From assembly GCF_003334255.1 (NCBI RefSeq), contig NZ_QOWU01000129.1: a stretch of DNA of 2,959 nucleotides; one strand, written 5' to 3'. The notes beneath the pieces are model-generated. The model worked only from the letters and a program-made list of their open reading frames with translations. It did no database searches and had not been told where the DNA came from. A program made the translations under genes and the position numbers. Below, one piece after another: positions 2 through 2,959 of the stretch. Origin of the DNA: Escherichia coli (lineage in GTDB: Bacteria; Pseudomonadota; Gammaproteobacteria; Enterobacterales; Enterobacteriaceae). The stretch's first letter is position 1. Each line of letters begins with the position of its first letter.

Positions 2-841
2 TGGCTTGCGCAGTGCGGGCTGACGGTGGAGCAACTGGCCAGACAGGTGGAGCCGGAATACACACCGGCGCGAAAAGTTCATTTTTACCACTGCGACCAC
101 CGGGGCCTGCCGCTGGCGCTCATCAGCGAAGACGGCAATACGGCGTGGCGCGGGGAGTATGATGAATGGGGCAACCAGCTTAATGAGGAGAACCCGCATC
201 ACCTGCACCAGCCGTACCGTCTGCCAGGGCAGCAGCATGATGAGGAGTCGGGGCTGTACTATAACCGTCACCGGCACTACGATCCGTTGCAGGGGCGGTA
301 TATCACCCCGGACCCGATTGGGTTGAGAGGTGGATGGAATATGTATCAGTATCCGTTGAATCCCATACAAGTGATAGACCCAATGGGGTTAGATGCGATT
401 GAGAATATGACATCAGGTGGACTAATTTATGCCGTATCTGGTGTACCTGGATTGATTGCTGCAAACAGCATTACTAACAGTGCTTACCAGTTCGGTTATG
501 ATATGGATGCTATTGTTGGCGGAGCTCATAATGGGGCCGCCGATGCAATGAGACATTGTTACTTGATGTGTCGAATGACTAAGACATTTGGATCAACAAT
601 AGCTGACGTGATAGGTAAAAATCATGAGGCGGCAGGGGATAGACAAGGTCAGCCAGCTAAAGAAAGAATCATGGATCTTAAAAATAACACTGTCGGTATT
701 GCTTGTGGCGATTTTTCTGCCAAATGTAGCGATGCATGTATTGAAAAATATAACACTGGGCAACTCTTCGGGTTAGATGGTATAAAAGCAGATAATCCAA
801 TAAAAGCAAAGCAAGGGAGTTCAGATGCTTCAAATTATTAG
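2..841 (+). CDS. Rhs-family protein, C-terminal portion (5'-partial; start lies upstream of the window): end of conserved Rhs core plus variable C-terminal toxin domain
   Basis: Frame 2 is open from the window edge (nt 2) to TAG at 839-841; the ORF-track start at 26 is a GTG inside a longer open frame. The translation ([58 protein letters not shown]...[47 protein letters not shown]) matches from memory the conserved end of enterobacterial Rhs core domains, including the YD-repeat-like YDEWGN and the PxxxxDPxGL motif. Possibly rhsE-like; unverified. Confidence 0.9.
362..391 (+). other. Rhs core / C-terminal-domain boundary motif PxxxxDPxGL ([10 protein letters not shown])
   Basis: Direct translation of nt 362-391 gives [10 protein letters not shown]. 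In Rhs and related polymorphic toxins this motif marks the autoproteolytic junction between the conserved core and the variable toxin tip (established knowledge for the family). Confidence 0.85.
392..838 (+). other. variable Rhs C-terminal (CT) toxin domain, ~149 aa, family unassigned
   Basis: Sequence downstream of DPMGL ([149 protein letters not shown]). GC content drops visibly relative to the core segment (by eye, not computed). Position directly after the boundary motif and directly before a small coupled ORF is typical of Rhs-CT toxin domains. Confidence 0.7.
813..819 (+). promoter_or_regulatory. Shine-Dalgarno (AAGGGAG) for the ORF starting at 825
   Basis: AAGGGAG at 813-819, 5-nt spacer (TTCAG), then ATG at 825-827. 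It lies inside the 3' end of the Rhs coding sequence. Confidence 0.6.
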
Positions 842-1307
842 AGGCAAACTTGTCATTTTTTTAATTACCCTTTGTTTATTTGTTGTTTACCTTGGGTTTG
901 ATAACAATTCAAATTCTGACATCGTATTTTATGGACATAAAACACCAAAGAGCGTTGAGATATATCTTTCTGAAAAAAATATTATTTATAAAATAATTAA
1001 TGACCAAAAAATTAGTAGAGGGAATGGTCATTTTATAAGTATAATGGTTAATAATTACAGGACGCACTGTGGAGTGGTTGATATAAATCTTAATTTTTTC
1101 AATGATATTCTTTATAGCGTGCGATTAAAAAACATTAGTAAACTGGAGAATATGGAGTTCTGCGCTACAAAACAACGGGTGTATTTTAGTGATAAAAACA
1201 AGAAGGCTAGTTATAAAATAATTAATTATGGAGACTATTATGATGTTGATTATTATGATAACAATTTGAAAAATGAAGTTTTTGACTGGATTGGTAAATG
1301 GTCATAA
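825..1307 (+). CDS. putative cognate immunity protein of the Rhs-CT toxin; small protein with N-terminal signal-anchor / TM helix
   Basis: 160-codon ORF, ATG 825 to TAA 1305-1307, with a strong SD and a start that overlaps the upstream stop by 17 nt (translational coupling). The N-terminus [32 protein letters not shown] has a positively charged n-region followed by a ~17-residue hydrophobic stretch. The region is extremely AT-rich. Functional call rests on synteny with the toxin, not on recognised homology. Possibly ydcD-like (160 aa) from memory; unverified. Confidence 0.7.
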
Positions 1308-1384
1308 TGAACAACACCAGAAAGAGAAAAATATAAAATACATACAGAAAGACATGAGAGCAAGGGACGGGGCAGGGCAAGATC

Positions 1385-1416
1385 ATGAAAATTGTGATGT
1401 AAATCACGATTTTCAT
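1385..1416. repeat. inverted repeat / hairpin (14-bp arms, 4-nt GTAA loop); candidate weak intrinsic terminator or protein-binding palindrome
   Basis: ATGAAAATTGTGAT (1385-1398), GTAA (1399-1402), ATCACGATTTTCAT (1403-1416). The arms pair along all 14 positions with a single G-T (G-U wobble in RNA) at 1393/1408. It lies 77 nt downstream of the immunity-ORF stop and is followed by CTTTGCTTT. The stem is AT-rich, so a terminator role is uncertain. Confidence 0.45.
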
Positions 1417-1419
1417 CTT

Positions 1420-2640
1420 TGCTTTAACGCCTACAGGTGATCAAAATTTAACCTTTGGAATAACTAAAAAGATAAAAAAGGACGCCAGGTGAGTATTCAA
1501 AGTTTGCTTGATTATATTTCAGTGACCCCTGATATACGACAACAAGGAAAGGTTAAACATAAATTATCTGCTATTTTGTTTCTCACCGTATGTGCAGTAA
1601 TTGCAGGTGCCGATGAGTGGCAGGAAATTGAAGATTTTGGACATGAAAGACTTGAATGGCTAAAGAAATATGGTGATTTTGATAATGGCATTCCGGTCGA
1701 TGACACCATTGCACGCGTTGTGAGTAACATTGACAGTTTGGCCTTTGAAAAGATGTTTATTGAATGGATGCAGGAGTGCCATGAAATCACTGATGGTGAA
1801 ATTATAGCAATAGATGGAAAGACCATAAGAGGCTCCTTTGATAAGGGAAAAAGAAAAGGAGCAATCCATATGGTGAGTGCATTCTCGAACGAAAATGGTG
1901 TTGTACTGGGGCAGGTGAAAACGGAAGCCAAAAGTAATGAGATTACAGCCATTCCAGAGTTGCTTAACCTACTGTATTTAAAGAAAAATTTGATAACCAT
2001 TGATGCTATGGGCTGTCAGAAAGATATCGCTTCGAAGATCAAAGATAAAAAAGCAGATTATCTTCTGGCAGTAAAAGGCAATCAGGGGGAATTACATCAT
2101 GCATTCGAGGAAAAATTTCCTGTAAATGTGTTTTCTAATTATAAAGGCGATTCGTTTAGTACGCAGGAGATAAGTCATGGAAGAAAAGAAACACGTTTGC
2201 ATATTGTCAGTAACGTAACGCCTGAACTTTTGTGATTTTGAATTCGAATGGAAGGGATTAAAAAAGCTTTGTGTAGCATTGTCATTCAGGCAGAAGAAAG
2301 AAGATAAATCAGCAGAAGGTGTAAGCATCCGATATTATATTTCATCAAAGGATATGGATACTAAAGAATTTGCACATGCTATCAGAGCGCACTGGCTGAT
2401 CGAGCACAGTCTTCATTGGGTGTTAGATGTAAAAATGAATGAAGATGCCAGCCGGATAAGAAGAGGAAACGCAGCCTAAATAATATCTGGAATAAAGAAG
2501 ATGGCACTGAATTTATTAAGAGATTGCAAAGACATTAAGGGTGAAGAGGAAAAGAAAGAAGGCTGCGTTAAACACAGGGAAAGATCATCAGAAGTTCACT
2601 TTTTGTACTAAACAATTCGCATTTTATGTTTAAAAATTGA
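1420..2640 (+). mobile_element. degenerate ISAs1-family (H-repeat-like) insertion sequence; element ends NOT mapped, coordinates approximate
   Basis: Inferred from the decayed ISAs1-type transposase gene it contains (1489-2633). Terminal inverted repeats were not identified by eye. Confidence 0.4.
1489..2633 (+). pseudogene. ISAs1-family transposase (H-repeat-associated-protein-like), disrupted by two frameshifts and one in-frame stop
   Basis: Frame 1 (GTG 1489 to TGA 2233-2235) encodes a 248-aa N-terminal part with clear similarity to the second copy at 2719 and, from memory, to E. coli H-repeat-associated proteins (YhhI/YdcC/YbfD type). Motifs include ILFLTVCAVIAGADEWQEIEDFG, YGDFDNGIPVDDTIARVV, IAIDGKT, SNEITAIPELL, ITIDAMGCQKDIA and LAVKGNQG. 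Homology continues in frame 2 from ~2234 ([13 protein letters not shown]...RYYISS...[29 protein letters not shown]), is interrupted by in-frame TAA at 2477-2479, continues (IISGIKKMALNLLRDCKDIKG), then shifts to frame 3 near 2540-2544 (KRKRKKAALNTG...) and ends at TAA 2631-2633. Reconstructed length is ~380 codons. Possible RBS AAGGA at 1477-1481. Confidence 0.85.
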
Positions 2641-2706
2641 GATATTCCTTATTACCTAAAGCTGTTTTTTATTGCTTACACATGATCAAATACTCCTTAC
2701 ATAATT

Positions 2707-2712
2707 AAGGAG
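2707..2712 (+). promoter_or_regulatory. Shine-Dalgarno (AAGGAG) for the transposase ORF starting at 2719
   Basis: AAGGAG at 2707-2712, 6-nt spacer, ATG at 2719-2721. Confidence 0.6.
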
Positions 2713-2718
2713 AACAAA

Positions 2719-2959
2719 ATGGAACTTAAAAAATTGATGGGACATATTTCTATTATCCCCGATTACAGACAAGCCTGGAAAATGGAACATAAGTTATCGG
2801 ATATTCTACTGTTGACTATTTGTGCCGTTATTTCTGGTGCAGAAGGCTGGGAAGATATAGAGGATTTTGGGGAAACACATCCCGATTTTTTGAAGCAATA
2901 TGGTGATTTTGAAAATGGTATTCCTGTTCACGATACCATTGCCAGAGTTGTATCCTGTA
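2719..2959 (+). CDS. ISAs1-family transposase / H-repeat-associated protein, N-terminal 80 codons (3'-partial, runs off window)
   Basis: Not in the supplied ORF track because there is no stop before the window end. My translation: [80 protein letters not shown]. It is open through 2958 and is near-identical, from memory, to the N-terminus of E. coli H-repeat-associated proteins (YhhI/YdcC/YbfD paralog group; the paralog cannot be distinguished from this fragment). Strong SD upstream. Confidence 0.9.

Follow-up and report, generated by a model that had tools for sequence, protein, structure and literature searches.

Evidence for an H-rpt element nested in a decayed ISEc26-type element, and for probable cassette transfer, at the RhsE locus of Escherichia coli K-12

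Background

Insertion sequences of the ISAs1 family (ISAs1, IS1358, ISEc1, ISEc5 and ISEc26 in ISfinder) are approximately 1.2 to 1.5 kb in length, carry one open reading frame that encodes a DDE transposase, have inverted repeats that start with CAGGG, and are flanked by direct repeats of 8 to 10 bp. The H-rpt of E. coli was reportedly described by Zhao, Hill and co-workers in J Bacteriol in 1993, with a published length that is said to equal 1291 bp, and the element that contains ydcC in K-12 is the H-rptE of the older Rhs literature. The two elements at the RhsE locus that are the subject of this report, an ISEc26-type element (copy 1) and the ydcC element (copy 2), resemble the ISAs1 family in their lengths of 1305 bp (intact form) and 1291 bp, their single reading frames of 390 or 378 aa, their CAGGG repeats, a 10-bp duplication, and full matches to NF033564, PF13808 and PF01609. 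They differ from the family in that flanking duplications are absent from most of the H-rpt copies examined in E. coli, which lie at fixed island boundaries; these copies appear to behave more as relics or recombination substrates than as active insertion sequences.

Transposition of H-rpt has not been observed, according to the E. coli W genome paper (PMC3032704). Turnover of rhs toxin tips has been attributed to C-terminal displacement, in which a circular intermediate recombines with the rhs core by one crossover; in that work H-rpt and other IS elements are unmentioned and core recombination between loci is reported as infrequent (Jackson et al. 2009, PMC2935791). The RhsE locus resembles this system in that the toxin tip and the genes downstream of it form a unit decoupled from the rhs core, and in that one recombination end point falls within the final ~100 nt of the conserved core. 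It differs in that two loci carry the cassette and an H-rpt marks its other boundary, which suggests a two-ended replacement in which the IS element is the second homology arm. Compared with generic nesting of one IS in another and with IS-mediated adjacent deletions, the locus has the same target duplication and the same variation of flanks from the IS ends, and nothing unusual. The nested relationship of the two elements, the 10-bp duplication at yafV and the presence of the cassette at two loci were not found stated in the literature searched.

Methods

The window is the whole stretch of 2,959 nt that was analysed. It was compared by megablast with 5426 complete E. coli genomes, and junctions were sought in the same 5426 genomes with synthetic junction queries. 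An extended region of ~15 kb from K-12 (L001), in which the window occupies positions 6001-8959, was compared with loci from strain 14EC033 (L002), strain 504239 (L003), O157:H7 TR01 (L004), O157:H7 JEONG-1266 (L005), 2012C-4606 (L006) and MY1-8 (L008), and with a further locus, L007. Element termini were sought across the 15-kb locus with the motif CAGGGnAAGAT. The SNPs of copy 2 were compared as a mosaic with nine reference copies that are 2-7% apart.

Results and discussion

The locus and its toxin/immunity cassette

The window is the RhsE locus of E. coli K-12, with 99.9% identity and three SNPs relative to MG1655 by megablast. In the RefSeq annotation of the extended region the gene order is yncH, an N-terminally truncated rhs gene (rhsE), ydcD, yncO (minus strand), yncI, ydcC and pptA; yncI (b1459) is labelled a frameshifted ISAs1 family transposase with an internal stop, and ydcC (b1460) an ISAs1-like element ISEc5 family transposase of 378 aa. 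Both transposase genes of the window were therefore already annotated. They are a known IS pair of K-12 with an ordinary mobile-element history: H-rptE and yncI of the K-12 RhsE locus are the same DNA as the window, with no sequence difference beyond the 99.9% match. The features upstream of the two elements, or reaching into the first of them, are:

26-841, plus strand: 3' end of rhsE, an N-terminally truncated pseudogene in K-12 (positions 1141-1261 of NF041261, RHS_core; TIGR03696)
825-1307, plus strand: ydcD, presumed cognate immunity gene of the YdcD family (annotation; NF050020, 215 bits)
1222-1407, minus strand: yncO, a small annotated ORF that starts inside the left end of copy 1, reads outward over the junction of IS and flank, and is antisense to the 3' end of ydcD

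The Rhs core ends near position 391, with DPIGL at 311 and DPMGL at 377, and is followed by a polymorphic C-terminal toxin tip; the RHS_core and TIGR03696 matches stop at aa 122, and ydcD overlaps the rhsE stop codon. With a core end of the PxxxxDPxGL type, a variable tip and a small ORF downstream, rhsE and ydcD are organized as an Rhs cassette and are a putative toxin/immunity pair. Copy 1 lies directly downstream of the toxin tip and ydcD, and is inherited with both as one cassette. A promoter scan gave fewer matches than were obtained in shuffled sequence.

Two elements of different lineages, one of them truncated by the other

The features of the two elements within the window are:

1373-2574, plus strand: copy 1, a truncated ISEc26-type element of the ISAs1 family without the terminal ~100 bp and the right inverted repeat of the intact 1305-bp form
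1373-1390, plus strand: left inverted repeat of copy 1, CAGGGCAAGATCATGAAA, which is matched by the right repeat (ending at 8305 of L005) of the intact element in O157:H7 JEONG-1266
1385-1416, plus strand: terminator-like hairpin, with a stem of 14 bp followed by a T-rich tail, immediately inside the left end of copy 1
1489-2574, plus strand: yncI, the decayed transposase gene of copy 1, truncated at codon ~364 of 390
2565-2574, plus strand: decamer GCGTTAAACA, a target site in copy 1, of which only the left copy is present here and which flanks copy 2 on both sides in the complete nested structure
2575-2959, plus strand: copy 2, an H-rpt of 1291 bp (H-rptE; ydcC element) of which the window covers the 5' 385 nt; its left inverted repeat CAGGGAAAGATCATCAGA starts at 2575
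2719-2959, plus strand: first 80 codons of ydcC, an intact gene for a 378-aa ISAs1-family transposase; the ORF leaves the window and is complete in the extended K-12 region

The terminus search found exactly three ISAs1-type ends in the 15-kb locus: left ends at 1373 and 2575, and a right end at L001 9865. The right inverted repeat of copy 1, present in JEONG-1266 (ending at 8305) and 2012C-4606 (ending at 9602), was absent from the window and from K-12 in this search; having a left repeat only, copy 1 of the window is therefore a truncated relic and not a complete IS. Copy 2 extends from 2575 to 3865 in extended coordinates (1291 bp), and its right repeat (L001 9848-9865, ending in AATCTTGCCCTG) ends 906 nt outside the window, where it overlaps the stop codon of ydcC and borders directly on the upstream region of pptA; by hand count, 13 of the 18 positions agree between the two arms. 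There is no spacer between the elements, the gap between the two ORFs being the 144-nt leader of copy 2 itself. The coding homology of copy 1, whether with YdcC or with the intact protein of the ISEc26 type, ends exactly where copy 2 begins, at 2575, and the end of the yncI pseudogene at 2633 in RefSeq/PGAP is 59 nt too far, inside the copy 2 leader.

Compared with the intact homologue in O157:H7, which has 98.6% nucleotide identity to copy 1 and matches the whole NF033564 profile with 415 bits, yncI has three lesions: an additional C at 2227 that shifts the frame into a stop at 2233-2235, a G to T substitution that changes GAA to TAA at 2477-2479, and a 5-bp deletion of GGGTG near 2535-2539. 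Copy 1 is functionally dead. YdcC matches NF033564 (ISAs1 family transposase) with 416 bits over positions 1-314 of 314, and PF13808 (DDE_Tnp_1_assoc) and PF01609 (DDE_Tnp_1) as full models; copy 2 encodes a full-length DDE transposase that may still be active. The contrast of a decayed first copy and an intact second copy, drawn in the initial annotation from the window, is borne out by the three lesions and the truncation of yncI and by the complete 378-aa ORF of ydcC in K-12.

The earlier count of 48 identical residues in 80 (60%) between the translations from 1489 and 2719 was reproduced exactly, and full-length alignment upholds the view that these are distinct lineages and not a recent tandem duplication. 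Once the downstream sequence is included, the second ORF proves complete rather than a fragment, and near-identity of the copies is absent beyond the first 80 codons as well. The intact O157:H7 copy 1 protein (390 aa) is identical to YdcC at 217 of 373 residues (58%), and copy 1 of the window can be aligned with YdcC, allowing for frameshifts, from residue 1 to ~364 of 378 with ~56% identity. Identities of 58% in protein and ~67% in DNA over the full length mean that the elements are neither products of a recent duplication nor fragments of one element. The nearest relatives of the copy 1 protein, in Salmonella and E. coli, are ~80% identical, and below these the identity falls to ~60%, where the bulk of the enterobacterial 378-aa H-rpt proteins is found; this drop also supports distinct lineages. 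PGAP names copy 1 as ISEc26-family and copy 2 as ISEc5/ISEc1-family.

The nested structure at yafV

Copy 1 is present in 2529 genomes. In O157:H7 JEONG-1266, a module of rhs tip, ydcD, yncO and copy 1 is located at the end of a T6SS cluster and adjoins yafV, and copy 1 is intact: it measures 1305 bp, has an inverted repeat at each end, encodes an ISEc26 family transposase of 390 aa and contains GCGTTAAACA once. The flanks of the complete element, GGGACGGGG on the left and CGGGGGGATT on the right, have only the 5-nt CGGGG in common. Uninterrupted copy 1 was found in 310 genomes, at least 99% identical to the O157:H7 query in 309 of them and, among the matches listed, only adjoining yafV.

In 2012C-4606, copy 1 is interrupted. 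At the left junction its 5' part ends in GCTGCGTTAAACA and is joined to CAGGGAAAG, followed by copy 2; at the right junction copy 2 ends in CTTGCCCTG and is joined to GCGTTAAACACATG, followed by the 3' remainder of copy 1, which ends in CTCTTGCCCTG. Copy 2 thus lies between two perfect 10-bp copies of GCGTTAAACA (8193-8202 and 9493-9502), and the remainder of copy 1 is 100 bp in length and includes the right repeat. L007 has the same right junction, with GCGTTAAACA to the right of copy 2. Two different junction queries found the complete nested structure in 298 and 283 genomes, at yafV in all of the matches listed. At K-12 RhsE itself, the left decamer only is present. Sequence comparison shows that copy 2 is inserted inside copy 1, with a 10-bp target-site duplication; its position within copy 1 at yafV, together with the duplication, means insertion of one IS in another and not two chromosomal hits. 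K-12 and 2012C-4606 have all three copy 1 lesions and an identical left junction in common, and so descend from one interrupted allele.

The pptA side of the RhsE locus

The K-12-type arrangement at pptA occurs in 1239 of the 5426 genomes. Synthetic junction queries of the complete genomes found none in which ydcD is joined directly to pptA, and only one, with an IS1 between, in which copy 1 is joined to pptA without copy 2. The 3' remainder of copy 1 was near pptA in none of the 5426 genomes, and a complete copy 1 at RhsE was not retained in any genome searched. In three strains ydcC adjoins pptA without the rhsE 3' end, ydcD or copy 1. Strain 504239 has yncH, ydcC and pptA, with the same junction of right repeat and GGCATTATTG as K-12, and lacks the segment that corresponds to L001 4645-8574; strain 14EC033 has other Rhs/VgrG fragments at the left and 206 bp extra to the right of the right repeat; and O157:H7 TR01 has full vgrG-rhs and a 3'-truncated ydcC. 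The presence of ydcC at pptA in strains without copy 1 implies that copy 2, unlike copy 1, has long been resident at the pptA boundary. The DNA beside ydcC varies among strains from the exact IS ends on both sides, and so IS-adjacent rearrangements, or further recombination, have occurred at the RhsE locus as well.

A candidate shared pptA junction in O157:H7-type genomes was rejected, the 5-nt extension being a chance match of AAGCA to AAACA. The left flanks of copy 2 in 14EC033 and K-12 are similar (9/12), the other copies have nothing similar, and a target preference is unproven.

A mosaic block with edges in the rhs core and in H-rpt

Comparison of the K-12 RhsE locus with the yafV/T6SS locus of 2012C-4606 defined one more feature:

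276-2612, plus strand: near-identical block, with 6 differences in 2337 bp (99.7% identity)

Within the block are the toxin tip, ydcD and copy 1 in its truncated form, followed by the 5'-most 38 nt of copy 2. To its left the rhs cores of K-12 and 2012C-4606 diverge by ~6% (107 differences in ~1470 bp of aligned core), and by 6.5% just left of 275; to its right the divergence is ~6% from position 39 of copy 2. The left edge is 36 nt before the DPIGL demarcation of core and tip, and the right edge falls where the H-rpt begins. Over its initial 38 nt, copy 2 has the same sequence in K-12, 14EC033, 504239 and 2012C-4606, but four other H-rpt copies differ there; the crossover in copy 2 therefore cannot be placed. 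The shared block may end exactly at the junction of copy 1 and copy 2, and is equally compatible with an event mediated by the IS end.

Within copy 2, only the 3' ~500 bp of K-12 could be assigned in the comparison with nine reference copies, and these are of the type of 504239: positions 900-1291 are identical and there is one difference in 800-899. The 5' 800 bp in K-12 are a private allele, 3-5% from every reference, which a directed search found in none of 283 nested copies, the best mean identity being 96%. The RhsB-linked yhhI element of K-12 was rejected as the source of the copy 2 allele, with 29 differences spread along its length.

In MY1-8, the nested left junction at yafV is joined to the right end of a degenerate resident H-rpt, and this strain is a recombinant parallel to the K-12 case. 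The yafV boundary of K-12 holds a 291-bp 3' fragment of H-rpt with a degenerate right repeat, which is the resident end seen in MY1-8; as a vestige of the donor this boundary was rejected, the 291-bp H-rpt fragment being all that is there, with nothing on copy 1.

Origin of the K-12 arrangement

The most likely model, read from sequence comparison as a historical footprint, is one nested transposition followed by transfer of a cassette between loci through recombination in the rhs core and in H-rpt, a course of events that is probable with some reserve. By the sequences at yafV, the 1291-bp H-rpt transposed into the 3' end of the transposase gene of copy 1, which was already decaying, and duplicated GCGTTAAACA. 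Homologous recombination or gene conversion, we infer, may then have placed the left part of the nested structure at K-12 RhsE, namely the end of the rhs core, the toxin tip, ydcD, truncated copy 1 and the junction of copy 1 with copy 2. One end point would be in the conserved rhs core, and the other in the H-rpt already resident beside pptA. In the proposed model, the remainder of copy 1 and the right duplication are missing from K-12 because the second end point was in the resident H-rpt, and recombination into the resident H-rpt would likewise be the reason that the right end of ydcC keeps the old pptA junction and that its 3' 500 bp are the resident allele.

The initial annotation proposed instead that two ISAs1 elements were inserted independently, side by side, at a hotspot downstream of ydcD at RhsE. 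The elements are clearly of different lineages, and placement of H-rpt on the 3' side of rhs loci, which it gave as classical, was indeed found and recurs at several of them; both observations agree with a hotspot. This explanation is nevertheless highly improbable: the right end of copy 1 is missing and its transposase gene is interrupted precisely at the left repeat of copy 2, no target-site duplication surrounds either element at RhsE, and the identical copy 1 allele, lesions and junction included, is found at yafV, where copy 2 is demonstrably inside it. Copy 1 moreover belongs to the 99.7%-identical block with the toxin tip, and the occurrence of this 2.3-kb block at two loci contradicts an independent insertion of copy 1 at RhsE. 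Comparison of the same locus among strains, by which the order of the insertions was to be found, gives no support to repeated side-by-side insertion, as ydcC is at pptA without copy 1. Of the terminal structures expected of such insertions, both left ends and the right end of copy 2 were identified, and at K-12 RhsE there were no target-site duplications of copy 1, of copy 2 or of the composite.

Rearrangement in place is a stronger competitor, though unlikely. The left end of the resident ydcC element could have moved by intramolecular transposition into the 3' end of a complete copy 1 located upstream of it at RhsE, an adjacent deletion with loss of the DNA in between, or copy 2 could have been inserted simply and independently at the same decamer with subsequent loss of the remainder; the identical junction at yafV would then reflect another, independent insertion at a favoured target site. 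The junction is at the outer base of the left repeat of copy 2 and has no right duplication, ydcC is an intact transposase gene, and the 5' allele of copy 2 in K-12 is unlike that of any nested donor. The flanks of ydcC also vary from the exact IS ends (the gap in 504239, the additional 206 bp in 14EC033), and this variation is what gives an adjacent deletion at the same decamer its share of probability. However, the same 10-bp target would be needed twice, and such specificity is nowhere indicated: the flanks of six other H-rpt copies contain neither a similar decamer nor duplications. None of the genomes searched has a complete copy 1 at RhsE, and among the matches listed uninterrupted copy 1 only adjoins yafV. 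Less probable again is movement of the whole nested structure to RhsE with later removal, by an unrelated deletion, of the remainder of copy 1 and the adjacent DNA up to the right repeat of ydcC. Deletions are common at this locus, as illustrated by the 3' truncation of ydcC in O157:H7 and an IS1-associated loss in H31, but intermediates were found in none of the 5426 genomes, and the same junction of right repeat and GGCATTATTG in 504239, a strain that never had copy 1, would be unexplained.

Conclusions

The proposal that these elements have a part in the replacement of toxin tips is compatible with the boundaries of the mosaic; their role, however, would be that of a block of dispersed homology and not that of an insertion hotspot. 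A broader reading, advanced tentatively and with slightly less than even confidence, is that H-rpt elements at the distal boundaries of rhs and T6SS islands could serve as a second homology arm, the rhs core being the first, for two-ended replacement of toxin/immunity cassettes between loci or strains. The cassette of K-12 RhsE would be an import of the yafV type, and the nested copy could be taken as direct sequence evidence of H-rpt transposition with a 10-bp duplication.

For K-12, the value of the comparison is corrective: yncI belongs to a truncated relic of the ISEc26 type and ydcC to the H-rpt that interrupts it, and the two are not neighbouring insertions. The nested copy is a clean footprint of H-rpt transposition; it and the two-locus cassette are modest additions that do not change the kind of understanding at hand. 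The block found at two loci, with its edges in the rhs core and in H-rpt, is an example of how Rhs cassettes may shuffle by way of IS homology, and such IS-flanked shuffling would be an addition to the core-only model of C-terminal displacement. The pattern suggests that dispersed H-rpt copies may be mainly portable homology that bounds cassettes of an Rhs tip and its immunity gene.

Ends of the ISEc26-type element

The pseudogene call made by RefSeq for the decayed transposase gene yncI (window 1489-2633) is 59 nt too long when compared with the real end of the ISEc26-type element (copy 1) at 2574, and its extension into the adjoining H-rpt (copy 2, the ydcC element) is an annotation artefact.

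Features at the ends of copy 1:
Window 1222-1407, - strand: yncO, an annotated small protein gene with its start within the left end of copy 1
Window 1373-1390: left repeat of copy 1
Window 1385-1416, + strand: terminator-like hairpin; its 14-bp stem contains one mismatch, and its tail is T-rich
Window 2575-2633: overshoot of the RefSeq pseudogene call, covering the left inverted repeat and leader of copy 2

The yncO frame starts inside copy 1 and reads outward across the junction of insertion sequence and flank, in antisense orientation to the ydcD 3' end; this open reading frame therefore owes its existence solely to the insertion of copy 1, as a by-product. The hairpin lies 12 nt inward from the left end of copy 1, in a region where four terminator-like sites were found versus 0.9 expected, and could insulate the transposase gene against read-through from ydcD.

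Flanks of ydcC at the RhsE locus

Strain 504239 lacks the segment that contains rhsE', ydcD and copy 1 in K-12 (L001 4645-8574; L003 5707-5710 of strain 504239 versus L001 4644/8575), and the break point is exactly the left inverted repeat of ydcC, a sequence arrangement compatible with an IS-adjacent deletion. On the other side, 206 bp separate the right inverted repeat of ydcC from the sequence upstream of pptA (GGCATTATTG) in strain 14EC033 (L002 6795-7000), a segment that is absent from K-12 and strain 504239. A deletion in O157:H7 TR01 (L004 6960-7000) fuses codon ~370 of ydcC to the middle of this 206-bp segment, with loss of the right repeat. At the same TR01 locus, incomplete H-rpt left ends occur three times in tandem (CAGGGGCAGATT, CAGGGAAAGATCA and CAGGGAAAGATCATCGG; L004 5454-5500), with an IS1 fragment adjacent and the ydcC element downstream. 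The sole genome with the copy 1 tail and the pptA flank close together (H31, NZ_CP115984.1 2643451-2644807) has them ~750 bp apart; an IS1 annotation underlies the matching stretch, and this genome evidently lacks copy 2 there.

H-rpt copies at other boundaries

Another intact 1291-bp H-rpt, in O157:H7 JEONG-1266 (L005 3427-4717), has an rhs tip/immunity pair (sel1-repeat protein) on its upstream side and, on the other, the 5'-truncated rhs fragment bearing the ydcD-type tip. The H-rpt's right inverted repeat directly contacts the truncated rhs core, so the 5' break of this orphan rhs fragment is likewise marked by an H-rpt. Upstream of yafV, K-12 C600 retains a 291-bp H-rpt 3' fragment (L011 2706-2996) whose right repeat is degenerate (...GTAGTAATACCCCG); it occupies the boundary position that is the site of the T6SS cluster in other strains. 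The same degenerate end is present in MY1-8 (L008) and in L009, so an H-rpt right end is fixed at the yafV island boundary too.

Among the H-rpt copies inspected, a target-site duplication was found only at the one that interrupts the ISEc26-type element; none of the six others (L001, L002, L003, L005, L009 and L010) is flanked by one. Most H-rpt copies therefore owe the gain or retention of their positions to recombination or rearrangement, not to a recent event of simple transposition.
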